DNA of 64,000 bases, taken from NCBI GenBank assembly GCA_937903605.1, contig CALCZC010000025.1, forward strand, positions 131,275-195,274, read 5' to 3'. The DNA comes from an uncultured bacterium (GTDB taxonomy: Bacteria; Patescibacteriota; Patescibacteriia; Magasanikbacterales; GWA2-37-8). Below, piece by piece: positions 4,402 through 61,395 of this stretch (within the stretch, counting starts at the first letter, position 1; every line of letters begins with the position of its first letter). The notes beneath the pieces were generated by a model. The model made no database searches. It was not told the DNA's origin and saw only the letters and a list, made by a program, of their open reading frames with translations. A program made the position numbers and the translations under genes.

Positions 4402-6780
4402 TTATGGTTTTTGACTGGCTATTTGGGCGTATTTTTCCAAAGCTGCCCATTGGGCTATTTTATCAGGTTCGATAAAACGATTTTTATAATCTTTGTTGCC
4501 CAAAGTGATAATGATATATTGTTTTCCGGTTCTTGTTTTGGAATAATTGTCCAGTGCTTGTTTGGTGGCAGTGCCGTAATAACCGGTATTACTCTTGTGT
4601 TTAAAGAATCCTTCTTTACGCAAAAGTGCCTGGAGTTGTTTGACTTGATTGTTAGTTTGTCCAAACTTTACTTTTTCAGCCAAGTTTATTATTGGGTCGT
4701 TTATTTTTCCTTCGATAAGCATGAGTAATGTTGAGCTGGCCTCATCGGTAAAACCCGTTTTACTGGCTAAAATTTTATAATTTTTTGTTGTTCCCAAAAG
4801 CTTGTTAGTGTTATTTAAAGTTTGGGTTGAAACTTTTTTTCCGGAAGTCTTGGTTATTTTGTAAGACTTTAAACCCAAAGCTTCTTTGATTTCTTTTTTA
4901 TCAAGCGCTTTGACGAAAATTTTTAACAAATCTCTGGCAGTGGAAACATTTTGTTCACTCAAACCGGAGACATCGGATATTTTTGTATTATCCGCACCCC
5001 AATCTTCCAAACGTTTATTGATGTTTTGTATAAATTCCGTTTCGTTCACCCCGCTATTTTGAGCGATAATATTGGAAACATTGTTTACAGAACCAACCAA
5101 CATACCATAAAATAAATCTTTATTTTTAATTTTATCACCGTTTATTAGGTTAAGAGGATTACTGTCAGAAGCTTGTTTTTTGGCATCAAAAACCGAAGTT
5201 TTACTGAGACTAAAGTCAGTAACCAGAGCTTCATAGGCGGTTAAAATTTTAGTTAGAGAAGCTATAGGAAAGGCCGTATCAATATTTTTTCCGGAAATTA
5301 TACGACCACTAGGGAATTCAGCTACCAAATAAGCCGGCAAATTGGTTTTGTATAAGTCTTCAACTGTCATACCGCTATCACCCAAAAATTTATTTTTGGA
5401 AGAAGCCAAGCTATTGTTGACATATATGGAATCGCCTTCAGCCATGGACAATAATGTTGAAAGTTCGGCAGTGACTAAATTTTTATAATTATAACCCATT
5501 GCCAAAAAAGTTTCTTCATCGGCAATACGTCTTTTTTTACCTTTATCGATAACGTAAATAATATTTCTATCCTTCATTTTAAGCAAAGTTCCATCGGCAA
5601 AAGTTATTAATTTATCGGAAATAGCATAAGTGGCAATATCTTTTTTTTGCTTGTTTTCAATTTCCAATCCCGGGTAGTTGGTTTTGGCTACTTCAGATGC
5701 TGTTAGGGGAAACAAAACACCGTCTTTAAATAGGAAATGAGCGTTGGCTGCATCGGTAATTTTATAAATAACACCTTGAGGTTTGGTTGTAGAGGTGGTA
5801 ATTGTCGGGCCGATTTCATAACCACTCATCTCATTTTCAGTTGCTTCGATTATTTCTTGTGGATTAAAACCCAGTTTTCTAACAGTCTCTTCATTGGCAA
5901 AAGGTCGTTTAGTGTCATAATCAAGTAAATAATAAGCACGTTCCGTTTTGATAATGGAATAGTTGGGAAAATTAATAGGGGCACCTTCCGGATAATTTAT
6001 CAGGTCAGTATCAGGAACGATAACCGCTAAATTTGGATTGGATCGAGAAATCAAAACCGTCTTGCTTTCAAAAGGTCTTTTTTTGCCATCAGAAATCAAA
6101 TAATATTTTTCCGAAGTGGCGGCTTGTAGAATTGTGCCGTTGGGATAGATAGAAGCAAACCAATTATTCCAAATTCGCCAAAAATTTTTATTTCCATTTA
6201 AATGAGGAGTATAGGTATATAAAAAAGCGGTAGCCCAGCTCTGAGGAACGACCTGTTGATTATTGATAAAGACCGGAGAATTTATTTTTTTCACTACGCT
6301 ATGAGAAGTATTGTTATAGTACCAACGGATTATCCCGGCGGCGTTATCAACTTGTTTGGCAAAGCCTTTGTATTTTTGAATTTTCGGATCATTCATACTG
6401 CAAGAATCACAAACCGCATAACCCATCGCCCAATCAAGTTGTTTTTGAGTGGGGGAGTTGTCCATCACCAGACTTTGTTCCTTCTGTAAATTCACCAAAA
6501 GAAATTTGGGATTAATGTTGTATCTTTGTGCAGCCTCATAAATTATTTGTGCGGCTGTTTTGTGGCAATCATCTATGTCCAAAGCCGAATAAGTTGCCAA
6601 ATAACTTCCCTTGGCTTCTAAAAATTTTTGGACATCCCGAACGGTCATAGAACTGCTTTGTTGCATCTCTTCGTCGGAAATAATAAAATTAGGATTAAAT
6701 TCCGTTTGTGCCAAGGAAAAAATAGGTAAAAGTAGACTAAATAAACATATAAAAATAAAGGCAATTTTGGATAGTCTCAT
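4402..6780 (-). CDS. Secreted serine-type D-Ala-D-Ala carboxypeptidase (PBP5/S11-like) with a large N-terminal domain of unknown function and a C-terminal peptidoglycan-binding domain
   Basis: Signal peptide MRLSKIAFIFICLFSLLLPIFSLAQT. Carries the SxxK (ASLTK), SxN (SVN) and KTG (SKTGFT) motifs. The C-terminus LQALLRKEGFF...GYYGTATKQAL is PG_binding_1-like. Confidence 0.7.
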   Translation of the reverse strand: MRLSKIAFIFICLFSLLLPIFSLAQTEFNPNFIISDEEMQQSSSMTVRDVQKFLEAKGSYLATYSALDIDDCHKTAAQIIYEAAQRYNINPKFLLVNLQKEQSLVMDNSPTQKQLDWAMGYAVCDSCSMNDPKIQKYKGFAKQVDNAAGIIRWYYNNTSHSVVKKINSPVFINNQQVVPQSWATAFLYTYTPHLNGNKNFWRIWNNWFASIYPNGTILQAATSEKYYLISDGKKRPFESKTVLISRSNPNLAVIVPDTDLINYPEGAPINFPNYSIIKTERAYYLLDYDTKRPFANEETVRKLGFNPQEIIEATENEMSGYEIGPTITTSTTKPQGVIYKITDAANAHFLFKDGVLFPLTASEVAKTNYPGLEIENKQKKDIATYAISDKLITFADGTLLKMKDRNIIYVIDKGKKRRIADEETFLAMGYNYKNLVTAELSTLLSMAEGDSIYVNNSLASSKNKFLGDSGMTVEDLYKTNLPAYLVAEFPSGRIISGKNIDTAFPIASLTKILTAYEALVTDFSLSKTSVFDAKKQASDSNPLNLINGDKIKNKDLFYGMLVGSVNNVSNIIAQNSGVNETEFIQNINKRLEDWGADNTKISDVSGLSEQNVSTARDLLKIFVKALDKKEIKEALGLKSYKITKTSGKKVSTQTLNNTNKLLGTTKNYKILASKTGFTDEASSTLLMLIEGKINDPIINLAEKVKFGQTNNQVKQLQALLRKEGFFKHKSNTGYYGTATKQALDNYSKTRTGKQYIIITLGNKDYKNRFIEPDKIAQWAALEKYAQIASQKP

Positions 6781-40254: not shown

Positions 40255-40445
40255 ATAATTTTAGATTTTAGATTGCAGATTTCAGAATGATAGAGTTATT
40301 TTGTCATTCTGAGTAAAGCGAAGAATCCCTTGTAGTTAATATTATTTCTCAAAGCGTTGCTTAAGGGATCCTTCTCCGCTGTAGCGGATCAGGATGACGA
40401 CGGTTAGACAATCATAATTCATAAATCATAAATCTAAAATTGGTT
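40255..40445. repeat. Composite intergenic element: AT-rich TTTAGATTTTAGATT motif + inverted pair of family C hairpins (40302-40329 and 40365-40399) + inverted AT-rich motif
   Basis: TGTCATTCTGAGTAAAGCGAAGAATCCC and GGGATCCTTCTCCGCTGTAGCGGATCAGGATGACG, flanked by AATTTTAGATTT / AATCATAAATCTAAAATT. Confidence 0.5.
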
Positions 40446-41833: not shown

Positions 41834-42181
41834 ACAACAATTTATGATTTTAGATTTATGAATTTAGATTACGTACGAACTTACGAAATGATACCTGCCC
41901 GCCAACGGCCTGGAGCCGTAAGGTGAATGGCAGGCGGGCGAAATTACGAAAAATAAAATGGTTTTTGTCATTATTTATTCGAGACATTCGGATGAATTCG
42001 TAGATTCGGATTATTCTTGAGAGAATATTATAACACTTCTGAGTAGAAAAAACAAAAATCAATATTTTTAAAATTATTTATATCAAGATATCTGACTAAA
42101 TAACTCTAATATTAGCTAAATTTTGATTAAAAATTACATATTTTATCTAATATTAGCCAAAAATTGGTTTATATGATGGTC

Positions 42182-43305: not shown

Positions 43306-43400
43306 ATTTTTGATTTATGAATTATGATTTTTGAATTATGATTTATAGACACCTGCGTCATCCTGAATGACAAAATGGTTTTATCATTCTAAAATCTGCA
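43306..43400. repeat. Composite element: tandem GAATTATGATTT AT-rich repeats + family C hairpin (CGTCATCCTGAATGAC...TTTATCATTCTAAAAT)
   Basis: Same organisation as 40255-40445, placed immediately upstream of the flavodoxin start codon. Confidence 0.45.
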
Positions 43401-44575: not shown

Positions 44576-45697
44576 CTATTTTTCCCAACTAAAACCCTCT
44601 CTCCCAAAATGTCCATAAGCGGAAGTCATGGAATAAATAGGCTGTTTTAATTGCAAAAATTCCGTAATACCCCGTGGGGTAAGATCAAAATTGGCGCGCA
44701 AATATTCGCCCGCTTCTTTTTCTCTACTTTTATCTCCGCGAAATATTTCAACATTTACATCCACTGGTTCACTAACACCGATAGCATAAGCCAAGCGTAC
44801 TTCGGCTTCTGCTGCAAAACCCAGTTTGATAAGCTGTCTGGCGAGAAATCTAGCCATATAGGCGGCACTACGATCCACTTTACTGGCATCTTTACCGGAA
44901 AATGCCCCTCCTCCGATACGACCGATACCGCCATAAGTATCTACCGCAATTTTTCGACCGGTCAAACCACAATCACCATAAGGTCCGCCGGTTTCAAAAC
45001 GTCCGGTCGGGTTGATATAAATTTTTATTTTTTTATCATCCTTGATATTTTGAAAATGCGGATTAATAATGAATTCTTTTTTAAACCATTCACCGCAAAT
45101 CGGCTTGATAACATTTTCCAAAACATATTTTTCCAAATCCGCGCTGGCAATGTCTTTGATGTGTTGCACGGAAACAATCACTGATTCTATTTCTTTTGGG
45201 ATACCGTTTTCATACGCGACAGTAACTTGGGCTTTGCCGTCGGGCAATAGCGGACAATCTGCTTGGGTTTTGGTCAACTCATTTAATCGTGCGCAAAGAC
45301 GATGGGAAAGCAGTAGTGGCAACGGTATCATCTGGGAAGTTTCATCTGTGGCATAACCGTACATCATCCCCTGATCGCCCGCTCCGCCAGTATCCACTCC
45401 TTGAGCAATATGCGCGGATTGTTGACCAATGAGATTTTGGATCTGGAAATTATTAACTTCTCTTTCACTATAACCAATATTTTTCAATACATTTTTGGCA
45501 ATAGTTACATAATCAGGTCTAGCACCAGAAGTTATTTCTCCAGCCAAGATAAGGTGGTTGTCCTTGATAAGACATTCTATAGCTACGCGCGAATTTGGAT
45601 CTACCCCTAAACAAGCATCCAAAATCGCATCGCTAATTTGATCACAAATTTTGTCCGGATGACCGGCACAAACTGATTCACAAGTTTTATATTTCAT
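44576..45697 (-). CDS. metK: S-adenosylmethionine synthetase
   Basis: GHPDKICDQISDAILDACL, GGGAFSGKD and the GAGDQG motif. Confidence 0.9.
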   Translation of the reverse strand: MKYKTCESVCAGHPDKICDQISDAILDACLGVDPNSRVAIECLIKDNHLILAGEITSGARPDYVTIAKNVLKNIGYSEREVNNFQIQNLIGQQSAHIAQGVDTGGAGDQGMMYGYATDETSQMIPLPLLLSHRLCARLNELTKTQADCPLLPDGKAQVTVAYENGIPKEIESVIVSVQHIKDIASADLEKYVLENVIKPICGEWFKKEFIINPHFQNIKDDKKIKIYINPTGRFETGGPYGDCGLTGRKIAVDTYGGIGRIGGGAFSGKDASKVDRSAAYMARFLARQLIKLGFAAEAEVRLAYAIGVSEPVDVNVEIFRGDKSREKEAGEYLRANFDLTPRGITEFLQLKQPIYSMTSAYGHFGREGFSWEK

Positions 45698-45760
45698 ATT
45701 TAAAAATTTAAAGATTGTAAAATTAACGAATTTTAGATTTATGATTTTAGATTAACAATT

Positions 45761-45851
45761 TAAGACTCTCCCCTAACCCCTCTCTTATCAAGAGAGGGGA
45801 AACCATAGACCCCCTCCTTTTATTTAAGAGGAGGGCTTGGGGTGGAGTCTA
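45761..45851. repeat. Family A modular hairpin repeat, copy A1 (modules X+Z) with AGACTC...GAGTCT termini
   Basis: AGACTCTCCCCTAACCCCTCTCTTATCAAGAGAGGGG...CTCCTTTTATTTAAGAGGAGGGCTTGGGGTGGAGTCT. It starts a ~500-bp hairpin-rich non-coding stretch (45700-46255). Confidence 0.55.
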
Positions 45852-46156
45852 TAAATAAAAAACTTTCCCTATTTGGGAAAGAAGAAAATCGACCTGCCTG
45901 CGCGTTTTTTAAGACGAACAGGCCTTATCTTTCCCTATTCTCCGCATTTGAAACGGAGTAAAGGCTAGAATTGGCACCTTTCTTTGAAGTTTAATCAAAG
46001 AGGTTGTCGGCAGTGTTCGGGCTAGATCCCTAGATTCTTCGCCAAAGCGAAAAAACAAACTGCACTCTGGATAATTTAAATTGTCTGGGATAATTATAAC
46101 ACAAATAATTTAAAGTTGTAAAGTTGAAAATTAAAATTGAAAGATTAAAAAGATTT

Positions 46157-46216: not shown

Positions 46217-46255
46217 GAATAAAAAAAGCGGAGGGTTAACTCCGCTTCTGATTTT

Positions 46256-47653
46256 TTAAACCTTTCTAAATTTACTTTCGCGACATTTCAAATCACGTCC
46301 GCAATAACGAACACCTTCGGCACAGGCGCCGCTATGAAAACAAGGCGGAATCATTTTGGCAATAATTTTTTTTATGCCTTCTTTCGTGTGGTTGCTCTCT
46401 TTGTTTTTACTCAAAGACAATATGGCATCTCTGAGCAAAACATTGAGATTGTAGATTTCTTCCTGTGCTTGCCAACAGAATCTCTTTGCACTTTCATGAA
46501 GCCAAGCATTGAAAGTGCTAGTTTTCTTGTAAGTAACTACGGTACCATAAGGAGCGATAGCTGAAAACAGGCTTACAGGAATAGAATCTCTCAAGTCACA
46601 GTAGTATGAAAAAAAAGATTTAGCAATTTTTTCCATTCTGAGTTCCTGACATATCGGCGTAAGATAAAACTGTCCGGTAAATATAGGTTCGCCACGACGA
46701 ACCGTCCGGTGTCGCTGATCCTGTCCCATGGTTGTTAGAGAAATTCTAGCGCGATAAGAAATCATACCGATATTATTTTCCATTCTCTCCGGCAAAAAGT
46801 GAAGCTTGTCAACCGGATGCATATCCGTCTCTTCGGGAGATTTGAATTCCATCAAATCTTGAAAATTAACATCTTCTACTTTGGGATTAAGAACAAGTAT
46901 TTCTTTCGGTAAAATCAACGGCCAACGGCAAATCCAATCATCTTTACGTCGACGGTTATGGTCAAACATAAAGGCGATCTGGGGATATTTTTCTAAAATC
47001 CGTTCTTTCATCATTTCCGTAATCTTCCGCATTCCCGGCGACCAAGCCGATTCCCACAAAGAAACCAGGGTGACAAGATCAATGGTATGCACCAGGCCAG
47101 TGGGAAAAATTGTGGAAATAAATACCCGGAGTTGCTCCTGAGCGATTTTCGGCGCTCTATCAGCAATAACTTCTTCATTCAAATCAGGTCTTTCTTGACG
47201 AAAAAGTTTTGCGGTAGTCGCAATCGCTTCACTAATATGAGACGAGTAAATTTCTGTTCCGAGTTTTATAAAACCCAGAACATTTTCAACTTGTGTCGGA
47301 GTACACTCCGGCCACAAGGACAAGATGTGCGCGCGGATAGAGATATAATCGGGGTTGATAAACATTTTGGCACAATATCTGCCCGAACGCTGGTCCGAAT
47401 TGTAAAAGGGATGAGTCAAATGAAGACCCAGCGTCACATCACTTACCGGAATATCTTCCAAGAAAAAGGTGAAATTGGTGTGTTCCAATGTAGTGTGATG
47501 AGAAACGAAAAAAAGTTTGTTTTGAACGAATTTTTTCGCATTTTCTTCTTCATTAATCAAACCGGGCATTTCATCTTGATAACAAGTTTTACCGGAAAAT
47601 TCCGCCATTCCCAACGGTGGGTTGGAAGAAACACCTAACAACGTTACTTTCAT
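46256..47653 (-). CDS. Divergent ThyX-like (flavin-dependent thymidylate synthase family) protein, 465 aa, RHR motif not conserved
   Basis: SHHTTLEHTNFTF...HLTHPFYNSDQRSGRY aligns to ThyX GHETPFEHIVFTF...FRHRIASYNELSGRY. RHR is replaced by LTH/THP. There is a ~230-aa C-terminal extension with a Cys cluster. Confidence 0.55.
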   Translation of the reverse strand: MKVTLLGVSSNPPLGMAEFSGKTCYQDEMPGLINEEENAKKFVQNKLFFVSHHTTLEHTNFTFFLEDIPVSDVTLGLHLTHPFYNSDQRSGRYCAKMFINPDYISIRAHILSLWPECTPTQVENVLGFIKLGTEIYSSHISEAIATTAKLFRQERPDLNEEVIADRAPKIAQEQLRVFISTIFPTGLVHTIDLVTLVSLWESAWSPGMRKITEMMKERILEKYPQIAFMFDHNRRRKDDWICRWPLILPKEILVLNPKVEDVNFQDLMEFKSPEETDMHPVDKLHFLPERMENNIGMISYRARISLTTMGQDQRHRTVRRGEPIFTGQFYLTPICQELRMEKIAKSFFSYYCDLRDSIPVSLFSAIAPYGTVVTYKKTSTFNAWLHESAKRFCWQAQEEIYNLNVLLRDAILSLSKNKESNHTKEGIKKIIAKMIPPCFHSGACAEGVRYCGRDLKCRESKFRKV

Positions 47654-47827
47654 GACTTTTCTCCTATAGAAAGGTTATTTTGTAAAGTACAATAATCAAA
47701 AAGACTTTAACAGCTTACAAACAAAATGTCAAAGATATTTGGGCCCTTCTGATTGACAAGACAGCTTTTATTTGTTACTTTCAAAATGGTTATTTAATAA
47801 TTTTCCTATATTTATAAGGAGGATATT

Positions 47828-48043
47828 ATGAATTATCCGGAAAAAAAGATTTTGGATGAATTTGAAGATGGAGCTTATACCTACACCTTCACCTGTAAAA
47901 TTTGCGGTTCAAAATTTGATTTCAGAGCTGATAACATGCAAATAGCTGTTTTTCGCGGTTTCAAAAAACACGACAAAGAAAATCCGAACTGCCACAGCAA
48001 CAAATATCATCTTTCCGGCGCCGGAGCCGTGCAGGAAAATTAA
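47828..48043 (+). CDS. Small hypothetical protein with a C-x2-C...H...C-H motif
   Basis: Strong SD AAGGAGG and a terminator at 48048-48082. Confidence 0.4.
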   Translation: MNYPEKKILDEFEDGAYTYTFTCKICGSKFDFRADNMQIAVFRGFKKHDKENPNCHSNKYHLSGAGAVQEN

Positions 48044-48085
48044 AATCAAAACCGACCCTTTTTACAGGCCGGTTTTTTATTTTTT

Positions 48086-48232
48086 AGACTCTCCACTAAC
48101 CCCTCTCTTATTAAGAGAGGGTGTTTTCTCCCACTCCCTCCCAACCTCCCTCTTCCGCCAAAGGCGGACAGGCTGGGCAGAGGGAGGAGTTTTCCCCTCC
48201 TTTTATTTAAGAGGAGGGATAGGGTGGAGTCT
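48086..48232. repeat. Family A modular hairpin repeat, copy A2 (modules X+Y+Z)
   Basis: X = ACTAACCCCTCTCTTATTAAGAGAGGG. Y = TCTCCCACTCCCTCCCAACCTCCCTCT...GCAGAGGGAGG. Z = CTCCTTTTATTTAAGAGGAGGGATAGGGTGGAGTCT. It lies between convergent genes. Confidence 0.6.
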
Positions 48233-49023
48233 TAATTTCTTCTAAAAAATTCGTATAGAAATATACTGGCAGCGCAAGCGGCGTTGAGCGATTCTATCTT
48301 TTCACTGGTTTTGATACAAACATTGGCATGAGATAATGCCAAAATTTCATCATCTATCCCACGGGCTTCACTGCCGATAACTATACAGTAATCCCCTGTT
48401 TTTTTGAAAACTTCGGACAACTCAGTATTATTTTGCGAAACAGTCGCGCAGACTATGGTGGTTTGTTTTTGTAACTGTTTTATAATTTCCCTATTTTTAT
48501 CTTTAAAAATTTTGACTTTGAAAATGGCATCTTTGGTGGCGGAAATAGTTTTGGGACTAAACGGATCGGCACATTTTTCATCTACCACGATATTTTCTAT
48601 TCCGAAACTCACGGCCGAACGGATAATCGTGCCGACATTTCCCGGATCGTTCAAACCGTTGAGATAAATAACACTGCCTTTGATTTTTTCACTCATTGTC
48701 GGCAGAGGGTAAACAGCGGCCAAGCCGGACGGAGTTTCCAGAGAGCTAAAATGTTTGTTCATAGGCGCGCTAATCTGAAAAACCGGAATATTTTGTTTGG
48801 TTTTTTGCAAAAACTTTTCCAGTTCACCTTGTTTATCAGACAGAAATTCCTCAGTCACATAAATTTCTTGCGGATAAAAACCACTTTTGAAAGCATCAAA
48901 AACAGTATTATGATTTTCAACCAAAAATAAACCGGATTGAATACGATATTTGTTCAATTCCAGTTTTTTCAATTCTTTGATTTTCGAACTGTTTTTTCCC
49001 AAATTTATAATATTCATAACCAA
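48232..49023 (-). CDS. TrmH/SpoU-family RNA 2'-O-methyltransferase (RlmB-like)
   Basis: SPOUT motifs LNDPGNVGTIIRSAVSFG and IVIGSEARGI. Confidence 0.8.
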   Translation of the reverse strand: MVMNIINLGKNSSKIKELKKLELNKYRIQSGLFLVENHNTVFDAFKSGFYPQEIYVTEEFLSDKQGELEKFLQKTKQNIPVFQISAPMNKHFSSLETPSGLAAVYPLPTMSEKIKGSVIYLNGLNDPGNVGTIIRSAVSFGIENIVVDEKCADPFSPKTISATKDAIFKVKIFKDKNREIIKQLQKQTTIVCATVSQNNTELSEVFKKTGDYCIVIGSEARGIDDEILALSHANVCIKTSEKIESLNAACAASIFLYEFFRRN

Positions 49024-49719: not shown

Positions 49720-49733
49720 ATATGTTAAATTAT

Positions 49734-49815
49734 TCTCTCCTTTTATTTAAGAGGAGGGATGGGTGGAGTCTCTCCCACTCCCTCCCAACCTCCCTCTCAG
49801 GCAGAGGGAGGGGTT
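49734..49815. repeat. Family A modular hairpin repeat, copy A3 (modules Z+Y, permuted order)
   Basis: It fills the whole spacer between the stop of the upstream gene and the start of the downstream gene on the minus strand. Confidence 0.55.
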
Positions 49816-49816
49816 A

Positions 49817-50236
49817 TTAAATTTTTTTTAAAAGATCAACCAAAGACAATTTAACAAAATTACCATTATAAGTTTTCAATGTTTTTTCCCATTTTTTTGG
49901 AAGTAATTTTTGCAATTCCGGCATAATAGTCCCCGGAGCAAATAGATAAGCGACTTTGGCACTACTGACATTTTTGAGATTGGATTTAAAAGCGGTAAAA
50001 GATTCTTTTTGTAAAAAGTTTTTCATAGCCCCCGCCTTATCTCCGGACTGAAAAAACACATTACCGTATTTACCAGTCTGTTCCCTGTCGGAAAATTTGG
50101 ACTTTTCTACTACAAAACCGGACACTTTGTTTATTACTCCTTTATCAGCCAAATAAAAATCCGCATTTAAATTTCCCGCCACGATAATCGCCACGCTGTT
50201 TTTCTCAAATTGAGGTAAGTTTTTTGGTATTTTCAT
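49817..50236 (-). CDS. Hypothetical protein. The true start is probably MKIPKN; the ORF-track N-terminus NFCNLCNFCNFCNL is translated tandem-repeat DNA.
   Basis: The 9-bp tandem repeats at 50254-50289 lie upstream of the internal Met. No family assignment. Confidence 0.4.
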   Translation of the reverse strand: MKIPKNLPQFEKNSVAIIVAGNLNADFYLADKGVINKVSGFVVEKSKFSDREQTGKYGNVFFQSGDKAGAMKNFLQKESFTAFKSNLKNVSSAKVAYLFAPGTIMPELQKLLPKKWEKTLKTYNGNFVKLSLVDLLKKI

Positions 50237-50253
50237 AGAAGCTATGAATAGAT

Positions 50254-50289
50254 TACAAAAATTGCAGAAATTGCAAAGATTGCAAAAAT
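50254..50289. repeat. Tandem 9-bp repeat (ATTGCARAR) x ~4 in the short spacer between two minus-strand genes
   Basis: ATTACAAAA ATTGCAGAA ATTGCAAAG ATTGCAAAA. Confidence 0.6.
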
Positions 50290-50300
50290 TAATAAAATAT

Positions 50301-50681
50301 TTATCTTTTATGTTCAAAATTTTTAATTAAATAGCTGCGAAAATGTGAAAGGTGTGAAGAAATATTATGTAATTCTTTTAATAATTCTTCAGCCTCTTTT
50401 TTGTTAATATAATCATTATCAAGCAAAATATAAACTATTGTTCTTACTTCACCAGCCGATCCTTTGGCTATATTTATAAAATTTGCAAATTCTTTATTAG
50501 ATGATCTTTCAAAACCTTCAGCAATATTTAACGGAACTGAATATGTTGCCCGCTTTAACTGATCACAAAGAGAAAAATCTCTCTTTAATCTTACGTTTTT
50601 ATCAATAAGCTTATAAATGTCTGAAACAAATTTTCTTGAAATTTGCCATACTGGAATATCCTCAAATTTTTTATAATACAT
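50301..50681 (-). CDS. Four-helix-bundle protein (23S rRNA intervening-sequence protein family, TIGR02436-like)
   Basis: NIAEGFERSSNKEFANFINIAKGSAGEV core pattern. Confidence 0.65.
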   Translation of the reverse strand: MYYKKFEDIPVWQISRKFVSDIYKLIDKNVRLKRDFSLCDQLKRATYSVPLNIAEGFERSSNKEFANFINIAKGSAGEVRTIVYILLDNDYINKKEAEELLKELHNISSHLSHFRSYLIKNFEHKR

Positions 50682-50744
50682 ACCTCCTTTTATTTAATTT
50701 CTGTTATTTTTGTAATATTTGTTATTTTTGTAATCTCTTTGGTC

Positions 50745-56281: not shown

Positions 56282-57499
56282 TTATCCAAACATCAAAAAT
56301 TCCGGTTTAAAAATCAACAAAAAGCCGATGATTACCATCAAAATACCGCCAATCAGATTGGAATATCTACTGTATTTACCGGATAGCACAGTCATCCGAA
56401 GAGTAATCATAGCGGCAAAAAATACTACCAAATCGTCGAGCATAAAAAAGAAAACATACCCGAGAATATATAGATAATATTGCCAAGTCGGTAAATTATT
56501 AAGCGCCAACACCTGCGTATAAATAGCCGGAAATCCTGCAGAACAAATAAGTTCCACCAAATTAACCATACCAGCTAAAAGCATAATTCCACCGAGCGCC
56601 AACCAAAAACTGTTGTGTTGAACCAACCCTTTCAGCTTAGCAAAAGTTTTTTGTTTTTCTTCTCCACCCGTCACTTTACAAGCTCCGTCTTTATTTTTCC
56701 AATATTCTCGCAAATGATAAAGTCCTCCACCCACAGCAAAAACAGCAATAGCGACACGAACCCAAATGATAAATCCCAAAAAAATAAGTAAATTTAACCA
56801 AGCCGCCATAAACATGAAATAAACGGCGGCTGAAGAAACAATGAATGCGGTTCCTAAAATAAACATCCTTTTACGATTTTGCATCCCGAGTAACAAACTG
56901 ATAAGAAACACCAAAACCCACATAGCACAAGGATTGAAACCGTCCAAAATACCGATAATAACAGTGAGCGCTGGCAAAGAAAAATCCATCGCATCAATTT
57001 TACCCAAAAAAGGCACATCGATAATCTTTTTTTCTTTTTCCTCATCTTTTGGAAGCTGTTCTTCTGAAGTTGGCTCTTTTGTTACGCCGACAATTTCTCC
57101 TACGCTATCTGGGCATTTTTTCCTACCACATTCTTCTATCCTATTGGCAAGTTCCGACGGTGACATGGTTTCCAAAAAACCGACAAAAGTTTTATCACCG
57201 ATGATAGTAAAAGGCACACCATCCACTCGTGCGCCAAGTTTTTTTCCAATCTGTTGCAAATAATTCATGTTTTGAAAATTGGTATAAACTTCAAAACTAT
57301 GCACGCGTAAATATGAATACTTGGTTTGAAAATATTTCAATAATTCTTCTTCTTTGGCACAATGAGGACATCCCTTGCCCCAAAAGAAATATAAATTAAC
57401 TTCTTCTTGAGCGGAAGCAGTCGGTGTCAAAAATAAACCAAAAATAGTAATAAATGTAATAACAATTAATTTAGCGACATTTTTTTGTAAAAAATTCAT
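56282..57499 (-). CDS. Thioredoxin-fold (CPHC) protein fused to a CcdA/DsbD-like transmembrane thiol-disulfide transporter domain
   Basis: N-terminal WGKGCPHCAKEE, a second Trx-like stretch, and C-terminal TMs with DGFNPCAMW (an SPC-like motif). Confidence 0.55.
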   Translation of the reverse strand: MNFLQKNVAKLIVITFITIFGLFLTPTASAQEEVNLYFFWGKGCPHCAKEEELLKYFQTKYSYLRVHSFEVYTNFQNMNYLQQIGKKLGARVDGVPFTIIGDKTFVGFLETMSPSELANRIEECGRKKCPDSVGEIVGVTKEPTSEEQLPKDEEKEKKIIDVPFLGKIDAMDFSLPALTVIIGILDGFNPCAMWVLVFLISLLLGMQNRKRMFILGTAFIVSSAAVYFMFMAAWLNLLIFLGFIIWVRVAIAVFAVGGGLYHLREYWKNKDGACKVTGGEEKQKTFAKLKGLVQHNSFWLALGGIMLLAGMVNLVELICSAGFPAIYTQVLALNNLPTWQYYLYILGYVFFFMLDDLVVFFAAMITLRMTVLSGKYSRYSNLIGGILMVIIGFLLIFKPEFLMFG

Positions 57500-57686
57500 A
57501 AATCTAAAATCAAAAATATTTATTGATAGTTTATCATATTAATTCTTTTTTTCCAAGAGTCCCAAATTTGGCTTATCTATCCCCAATTTAACCTTGACTT
57601 TTTGGCTAAAAAGTGTTATTTTTAAAGCCGGTTTAAAAAAATTGTACCTTGACAATATTATCAATCATCATCAAAAGGAGACTCTG

Positions 57687-61190: not shown

Positions 61191-61395
61191 ACACTTAAAT
61201 TTTAGATTTATGATTTAAAATTTTAGATTTAAAATTATCAATTATAATATCCATTTATGCAACTTTATGAACTTTATAAATTTTTTAAAACTTTTTATAT
61301 TTTATCATATTTTAGCGAAAAAAGCAAGGGCAAGGCAAAAAAAGACAAGTTTATTAAAAAAACAACCAGCTTTTTTAGCAGGCTGTTTTTTGTTT

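Follow-up and report, generated by a model that had tools for sequence, protein, structure and literature searches.

The window analyzed here is a 64,000-nucleotide (nt) stretch of DNA from an uncultured bacterium of the Patescibacteriota (Magasanikbacterales; assembly GCA_937903605.1, contig CALCZC010000025.1, positions 131,275 to 195,274 of the forward strand). Our subject is its thyX gene, which encodes a homolog of flavin-dependent thymidylate synthase (ThyX). Many bacteria have no de novo route to thymidylate other than ThyX, which is pursued as an antibiotic target because its composite three-subunit active site has no human counterpart. The original prediction, made from the sequence alone, described a ThyX homolog of 465 amino acids (aa) that lacks the catalytic RHR motif and carries a C-terminal extension of about 230 aa with a cysteine cluster. 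The open reading frame (ORF) was confirmed at 46256-47653 and lies on the minus strand. Bracketed by a promoter-like site, a Shine-Dalgarno sequence, and a terminator, it looks, as judged from these signals, like a real and expressed gene. Public metagenomes hold a 99%-identical protein. The features of the gene and its product are as follows (Tm denotes Thermotoga maritima numbering).

46256-47653, minus strand: tandem (two-domain) ThyX, a flavin-dependent thymidylate synthase; complete ORF, 465 aa (Pfam, AlphaFold2 model, homologs)
47704-47732, minus strand: sigma-70-like promoter upstream of thyX, TTGACA-17-TAAAGT with a TG extension
8 nt 5' of the thyX ATG, minus strand: AGGAG Shine-Dalgarno sequence (sequence inspection)
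46224-46249, minus strand: intrinsic-terminator-like hairpin and T-run, 7 nt past the thyX stop codon
46949-47653, minus strand: N-terminal ThyX domain, residues 1-235 (Pfam, hhalign, conservation)
47480-47500, minus strand: HHTTLEH, residues 52-58, corresponding to Tm H53-x-T55...H59 (hhalign)
47375-47419, minus strand: LTHPFYNSDQRSGRY, residues 79-93, a degenerate RHR position followed by an intact S-x-R-Y motif (binding of deoxyuridine monophosphate, dUMP, and lid)
46259-46948, minus strand: C-terminal ThyX-fold domain, residues 236-465 (model, Foldseek, Pfam, hhalign)
46706-46729, minus strand: MGQDQRHR, residues 309-316, with the RHR motif R314-H315-R316 (codons at 46706-46714) and Q311, the equivalent of Tm Q75 (hhalign, conservation)
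46454-46486, minus strand: KRFCWQAQEEI, residues 390-400, in which R391 corresponds to the uracil-binding Tm R174 and C393 is the first of four invariant cysteines
46295-46348, minus strand: PPC438FHSGAC444AEGVRYC451GR, a C-terminal cysteine motif, C-x5-C-x6-C (conservation)

By profile and fold, the protein is a member of the Thy1/ThyX superfamily. The full sequence scored 61.4 bits with Pfam Thy1 (PF02511; cut-off 24.8) over two stretches, and the full-length AlphaFold2 model is compact, with a predicted local distance difference test (pLDDT) score of 91 and a predicted template modeling score (pTM) of 0.90. All 50 matches listed for this model in the PDB were ThyX chains, 47 of them with E ≤ 0.001. 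These are single-domain chains that cover about half of the query (query-normalized TM-score 0.26-0.34), and the Foldseek search returned no solved structure with a two-domain tandem ThyX architecture. That the N-terminal half is a ThyX domain, as originally proposed, was borne out. Alone, it matched PF02511 over residues 14-207 (E 6.6e-13) and the canonical ThyX profile in hhalign (E 5.6e-6), and the expected HHTTLEH (52-58), FTF, and SGRY (90-93) blocks are present. C24 is invariant and aligns with a cysteine of Mycobacterium tuberculosis ThyX and with Tm S30, which makes it an ordinary ThyX position.

The C-terminal half (residues 236-465) was folded on its own from an alignment of C-terminal halves, and its model had a pLDDT of 86.6. 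The top 50 Foldseek matches of this model in the PDB were all ThyX or PolB chains (E about 1e-6, probability 1.00), with TM-scores of 0.5-0.6 over about 200-230 columns; the structure prediction suggested with the original prediction has thus returned a ThyX fold. The hhalign alignment with ThyX was collinear over about 115 columns and paired RHR with RHR, FYIP with FYLT (family consensus FYLP), Tm R174 with R391, and AQWEI with AQEEI. Judged from the model, the supposed extension is a second ThyX domain; the cysteine cluster noted within it is real. Aligning the profiles of the two halves with each other gave a spurious, nonsignificant match of 21 columns (hhalign E 0.13), which indicates that they have diverged too far for an internal duplication to be proven by sequence.

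Division of the active-site residues

Canonical ThyX consists of four identical subunits of about 220-250 aa. In the M. tuberculosis (Mtb) and Helicobacter pylori structures, a single active site draws on three subunits (PMC6514825, section 3.1; see also PMC5954106). Subunit A gives RHR and Arg199(Mtb), the latter equivalent to Tm R174; subunit B gives Ser71(Mtb), equivalent to Tm T55, and Arg190(Mtb); and subunit C gives Ser105/Arg107/Tyr108(Mtb), equivalent to Tm S88/R90/Y91 (PMC6514825).

Residues were matched to the T. maritima sequence (100% identical to its database entry) with hhalign. The N-terminal half retains H52 (Tm H53), T54 (T55), H58 (H59), S90 (S88), R92 (R90), Y93 (Y91), and R176 (R147) and has no equivalents of Tm Q75, R78, R80, and R174. 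The canonical RHR position reads T80-H81-P82, inside LTHPFYNSDQRSGRY; in the motif stretch THPFYNSDQRSGRY, RHR is absent and S-x-R-Y is retained. The corresponding stretch of the C-terminal half, RHRTVRRGEPIFTGQFY, retains RHR and has no S-x-R-Y. This half keeps Q311 (Tm Q75), R314-H315-R316 (R78-H79-R80), and R391 (R174) and also lacks an equivalent of R147. The A-role residues are exactly the retained set of the C-terminal half, and the N-terminal half retains those of the C role together with the B-role Ser/Thr. When the halves are pooled, Tm H53, T55, Q75, R78, H79, R80, S88, R90, Y91, R147, and R174 are all matched, and the matching positions (H52, T54, Q311, R314, H315, R316, S90, R92, Y/F93, R176, and R391) are invariant or nearly so. 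The signature RHRx7-8S(x)R(Y/F) is absent from either domain and exists only as a composite across both. The reported lack of RHR therefore applies to the N-terminal half and not to the protein. It had also been argued that recovery of RHR by a better alignment would make this an ordinary ThyX; RHR was recovered, but it is the second domain that supplies it, in trans, rather than a realignment of the first.

Conservation was followed in three sets: a 46-sequence alignment, a set of 80 drawn from species-representative genomes, with identities as low as 38%, and the 120 closest family members. Full-length homologs number more than 5000, span about 440-510 aa, and, where named, are called FAD-dependent thymidylate synthase (FAD, flavin adenine dinucleotide). 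The 80 loci of the species-representative scan are mostly from Patescibacteria. The closest belongs to Candidatus Magasanikbacteria (65% identity), and other hosts include Moranbacteria, Portnoybacteria, Parcubacteria, Campbellbacteria, Wolfebacteria, and Nealsonbacteria. R176, Q311, R314, H315, and R316 are each present in 80/80 of these sequences; H52, T54, H58, S90, G91, and R391 in 79/80; and R92 in 77/80. R314-H315-R316 is also invariant in the 46-sequence alignment. Among the 120 closest members, RHR occurs in the C-terminal half of every sequence and in the N-terminal half of none, and SxR[YF] occurs in the N-terminal half of all 120. Losses that complement each other, with the retained residues invariant, are what purifying selection on a composite site would leave behind; a decaying pseudo-enzyme would not be expected to show this pattern.

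The two ThyX-fold domains, the residue partition, its conservation, and the operon context described below are demonstrated. The reading we place on them, with a probability of roughly 77%, is that the protein is a functional thymidylate synthase with composite sites, in which two fused and diverged ThyX domains divide the active-site residues. The gene product is most likely the cell's ordinary enzyme for making deoxythymidine monophosphate (dTMP), in an unusual architecture. The C-terminal half would supply RHR (R314-H315-R316), Q311, and R391, and the N-terminal half H52/T54, S90/R92/Y93, and R176. Combining the D2 symmetry of the tetramer and the residue partition with the published subunit roles (PMC6514825) predicts a two-site dimer. 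A homodimer of the fusion would form a pseudo-tetramer of two N-type and two C-type domains. It would hold two complete sites for FAD, dUMP, and methylenetetrahydrofolate instead of four, each made of one C-terminal and two N-terminal halves, and the two remaining sites, related to these by symmetry, would be inactive. The reaction would convert dUMP to dTMP by flavin-relayed methylene transfer, with methylenetetrahydrofolate as carbon donor and reduced FAD as relay.

Compared with canonical ThyX (T. maritima TM0449, PDB 1O26; M. tuberculosis, PDB 2AF6/3GWC), whose fold is common to both halves, the protein shares Thy1 membership, the pooled active-site set, and, in its relatives, the pathway neighborhood. 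It differs in being one 465-aa chain of two diverged domains, in the split RHRx7-8S motif, in having two predicted sites instead of four, and in four additional invariant cysteines.

Several observations weigh against the composite-site synthase. Two usual features of ThyX membership were not found, the RHRx7-8S motif within a single domain and a score above the cut-off of TIGR02170, the NCBIfam thyX equivalog. The protein scored 38.6 bits over profile positions 17-96 only, against a trusted cut-off of 87.9, and its relatives likewise fell below it (30.8-46.8 bits). By sequence, the C-terminal half is a weak match. Alone, it scored 15.8 bits with Pfam Thy1 (E 0.012; profile positions 76-178), below the cut-off of 24.8, and its hhalign E values were 0.085 against the single T. 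maritima ThyX and 0.014 against the canonical profile. HMMER searches of PDB sequences with the protein or with family profiles gave no ThyX match to this half, and only weak ones (E 0.0014-0.07) to the N-terminal half. The C-terminal half was therefore recognized by its fold, and its homology to ThyX would rest mainly on that prediction. The residue equivalences are hhalign sequence registers, not a three-dimensional superposition, and these alignments show no counterpart of Tm R165 (Mtb R190) or of Mtb R87 in either half. The thyX gene of the window adjoins no dTMP-pathway gene. Finally, one Moranbacteria locus carries two tandem ThyX lineages side by side (L007, see below), and these are possibly not fully redundant.

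Relatives, cysteine site, and competing explanations

The second tandem lineage of Patescibacteria, here called type B, is exemplified by a 449-aa Moranbacteria protein (P0121). The family returned 3969 matches, with 482 clusters at 50% identity having E ≤ 1e-30; its closest 120 members share 74-100% mutual identity, and the clusters of more distant relatives carry no informative names. Like the window type, type B has two domains, with RHR only in the C-terminal half and S-T-R-Y in the N-terminal half. It is also annotated as FAD-dependent thymidylate synthase and also falls under the TIGR02170 cut-off. Unlike the window type, it has the C-terminal cysteine motif in 0/120 sequences, and it is too diverged from the window protein for detection by tblastn at E ≤ 1. 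In L007, a type B gene (4508-5857, plus strand) lies immediately upstream of a window-type gene. In another Moranbacteria locus (L088; 7001-8350, plus strand), type B alone holds the window-type slot, between the dCMP deaminase/kinase genes and tmk. This shared slot makes the two lineages look isofunctional, which argues that the core chemistry can proceed without the cysteine site.

Double-length ThyX-like proteins also occur in phages. Two matches in BFVD, from Microcystis phage LMM01 (A0A7D4, 491 aa) and A0A6B7EUB9 (461 aa), are annotated as thymidylate synthase and aligned with the two-domain model at TM-scores of 0.54-0.60 over 464-504 columns (E about 1e-9), with 11-12% identity. These full-length matches indicate that a fused double ThyX exists, having arisen or spread, outside Patescibacteria too.

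Window-type tandem ThyX with the cysteine motif was also observed in gut and rumen metagenome-assembled genomes labeled Rickettsiales/Alphaproteobacteria (e.g., Candidatus Enterousia), at 38-42% identity (loci L040, L045, L049, L052, L055, L057-L061, L070-L076, and L083-L086). This points either to horizontal transfer from or to Patescibacteria or to mislabeled bins.

Gene neighborhoods were surveyed at 86 loci with flanks of ±6 kb, many on short contigs. In a Portnoybacteria locus (L003), the order is dCMP deaminase, kinase, tmk, tandem thyX, dut, glyA (serine hydroxymethyltransferase), and folD; similar arrangements occur in L004, L005, L006, and L007. Across the survey, dCMP deaminase and tmk were each found near tandem thyX at 30/86 loci, dut at 18/86, glyA at 10/86, and folD at 7/86; a tmk-dut fusion query matched 17/86 loci, partly shared with those scored for tmk. 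In the 64-kb window itself, tblastn (E ≤ 1) found no thyA, folA, second thyX, tmk, dut, dCMP deaminase, glyA, or folD, in agreement with the original observation that no other thymidylate synthase is present there. In the window and its closest relatives, thyX has moved beside metK, an adjacency limited to this group. The metK features are:

44576-45697, minus strand: metK
45922-46077, minus strand: match resembling the SAM-I riboswitch (RF00162; SAM, S-adenosylmethionine) in the metK leader, 27.4 bits against a gathering threshold of 44.4, local E 6.6e-4
46122-46093, minus strand: metK promoter-like site
45881-45863, minus strand: terminator-like hairpin in the metK leader

The RF00162 match is full-length but below threshold, with large insertions in two stems. 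At gathering thresholds, Rfam gave no match in the window, and the region upstream of metK in L001, a relative at 65% identity, yielded no SAM riboswitch. From its sequence, the leader is probably a divergent SAM riboswitch that falls below the Rfam threshold in this lineage. With a separate terminator after thyX and a separate promoter-like site and leader ahead of metK, the two genes do not form an operon. Adjacency to metK was considered as a clue to SAM chemistry and rejected on the same grounds, the SAM-I-like leader and its terminator included.

The cysteine motif distinguishes the window type from its relatives. Every sequence of the 46-sequence alignment has C393, C438, C444, and C451, and so do 79/80 species-representative sequences; neither T. 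maritima ThyX nor type B has equivalent cysteines. Their spacing is C-x44-C-x5-C-x6-C, with no C-x-x-C pair, and the tail consensus is PPCxxxGxCxEGxRYCGR. C393 lies two residues past R391, in the loop after helix 381-391, and the other three lie in the tail. The tail was predicted with higher confidence in the full-length model (pLDDT 78-86) than in that of the C-terminal half alone (49-75), which hints at packing of the tail onto the remainder of the protein. Searched alone, it matched no Pfam family and no PDB sequence. The conservation pattern suggests a putative metal site, either structural zinc or an Fe-S cluster, and the metal would stabilize the substrate loop or relay electrons. The position of the site next to the substrate-binding loop makes an Fe-S cluster within electron-transfer range of the flavin plausible. 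The more specific proposal is a [4Fe-4S] cluster in a ferredoxin- or flavodoxin-dependent, not NAD(P)H-dependent, enzyme that acts as a heterodimer in one chain with two of the four ancestral sites alive; we regard it as unlikely. RumA, the 23S ribosomal RNA (rRNA) m5U1939 methyltransferase, combines uracil-C5 methylation with a four-cysteine [4Fe-4S] cluster of unclear role. It offers a functional analogy for the cysteine site only: its fold is unrelated, it is SAM-dependent and acts on RNA, and there is no sequence relationship.

We weighed the composite-site synthase against three other explanations. The likeliest of these, which we still consider improbable, is a ThyX-fold paralog with another activity, either a flavin/folate methylase or hydroxymethylase acting on UMP (uridine monophosphate) or dCMP, or an enzyme of nucleic-acid modification, in which the four cysteines serve the new chemistry. 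The scores well below the TIGR02170 cut-off, the absence of these cysteines from T. maritima ThyX and type B, and the possible non-redundancy of the two genes in L007 would all fit such a paralog. So would the neighbors of the gene in the window, metK and a SpoU-type RNA methyltransferase in place of dTMP genes. Among the structures that the C-terminal half matches best is PolB (PDB 4P5A), which has the ThyX fold. It is reportedly flavin- and folate-dependent and is a single-domain UMP/dUMP C5-methylase of Streptomyces cacaoi, encoded in a nucleoside-antibiotic gene cluster. No such cluster surrounds the window-type genes, whose neighborhoods hold housekeeping genes of deoxynucleotide metabolism or translation. 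The metK adjacency carries little weight because it is not an operon. Against a change of activity, the dUMP-contacting S-x-R-Y, RHR, and the R174 and R147 equivalents are all conserved, linkage to tmk, dut, dCMP deaminase, glyA, and folD recurs, and a cysteine-less tandem lineage takes the place of the window type at an identical operon position, as expected if the two share one function.

An alternative that we think quite improbable keeps a functional synthase but changes its assembly to a one-site monomer or to higher oligomers, with the cysteines possibly forming a redox-regulatory disulfide pair. Our subunit bookkeeping is borrowed from descriptions of homotetramers, and the tail motif matches no recognized zinc or Fe-S family. 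However, a set of four invariant cysteines with the spacing found here is usually the mark of a metal site and less often of regulatory disulfides. With two domains per chain, at least a dimer is needed for N-terminal halves to fill both the H-x-T and the S-x-R-Y roles, and canonical sites need three subunits (PMC5954106, PMC6514825).

The least credible alternative is a catalytically dead regulatory or structural relic: each half would be inactive singly, the N-terminal without RHR and an R174 equivalent and the C-terminal without S-x-R-Y, but what one half has lost is exactly what the other keeps, the retained residues do not vary among more than 5000 homologs and 80 species, dTMP-pathway genes are linked, and the expression signals are intact. 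The inference of a pseudo-enzyme or a new activity from the missing motif does not hold, given the invariant RHR and R174 equivalent of the second domain. What remains, in weakened form, of the milder idea of a catalytically divergent ThyX is a fused split-site architecture with four added cysteines.

Other features of the window

Repeats flank thyX on both sides, as first noted. They are palindromic, GC-rich intergenic modules built of CCCCTCTCTTATCAAGAGAGGG and CCCCTCCTTTTATTTAAGAGGAGGG hairpins, with three copies within 4 kb:

45754-45845: copy 1, downstream of thyX and upstream of metK
48082-48241: copy 2, past the divergent 71-aa ORF
49730-49810: third, partial copy

The two copies that flank thyX share segments of 40 nt at 93% identity and 31 nt at 94% identity (chance expectation 0), and no further copies were found elsewhere in the 64 kb. 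Mobile-element ends were considered and rejected, since the copies are three and short, there is no transposase, and L001 keeps the gene order. The modules behave like intergenic hairpin repeats of the REP (repetitive extragenic palindromic) or terminator type.

The ORF between thyX and copy 2 is conserved upstream of thyX in the closest relatives:

47828-48043, plus strand: 71-aa ORF divergent from thyX, with a strong Shine-Dalgarno sequence and a CxxC...C.H pattern

It is 66% identical at the matching position in L001 and L008 and only weakly similar to Zn_ribbon_8 (E 0.008). From this pattern and its conservation, it is likely a real small zinc-ribbon protein.

Several genes have an AT-rich motif of TTTAGAT/TTATGAT-like heptamers immediately ahead of them, in one orientation or the other; it could be a shared promoter or regulatory element. 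Its occurrences are:

40258-40286
41840-41868
43306-43334
45723-45765
57491-57519
61199-61227

Two 63-nt copies (32387-32449 and 32854-32916; 81% identical, 467 nt apart) carry a GC-rich hairpin, GGTCGAATTCCCC...GGGGG. They sit in an ORF-poor stretch of about 2 kb (31044-33029) upstream of asnS, match no Rfam family (E ≤ 1) and no tRNA, and are possibly an unannotated structured RNA or repeat.

A pair of 51-nt inverted repeats (50247-50297 and 50689-50739; 76% complementary, with TTGCAAAAAT-like units) brackets a 126-aa ORF (50301-50681, minus strand) that by eye resembles the four-helix-bundle "23S rRNA intervening-sequence protein" family. The repeat gives the ORF at 49817-50317 an odd NFCNLCNFCNFCNL N-terminus, which suggests that its true start lies further downstream.

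Significance of a tandem ThyX

The database label FAD-dependent thymidylate synthase was already in place for this family; for the fused architecture, the split site, and the four-cysteine motif, no description was found in the literature searched. Chlamydial ThyX may be double-length too. A family of more than 5000 sequences, mostly from the Candidate Phyla Radiation, appears to have fused two subunits, each of which keeps half of the catalytic residues. Tandem ThyX would be a natural counterpart of the engineered heterotetramers used for mapping ThyX sites and a clean case of subfunctionalization after internal duplication. The cysteine site beside the substrate loop could reveal a new reductant coupling; if the Fe-S proposal is true, an Fe-S-coupled synthase would be a new electron feed into DNA-precursor synthesis in anaerobes with minimal metabolism. 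For the organisms themselves, motif checks confined to the first domain, together with TIGR02170, under-call thymidylate synthase in these genomes, which matters for metabolic reconstructions that label them nucleotide auxotrophs.

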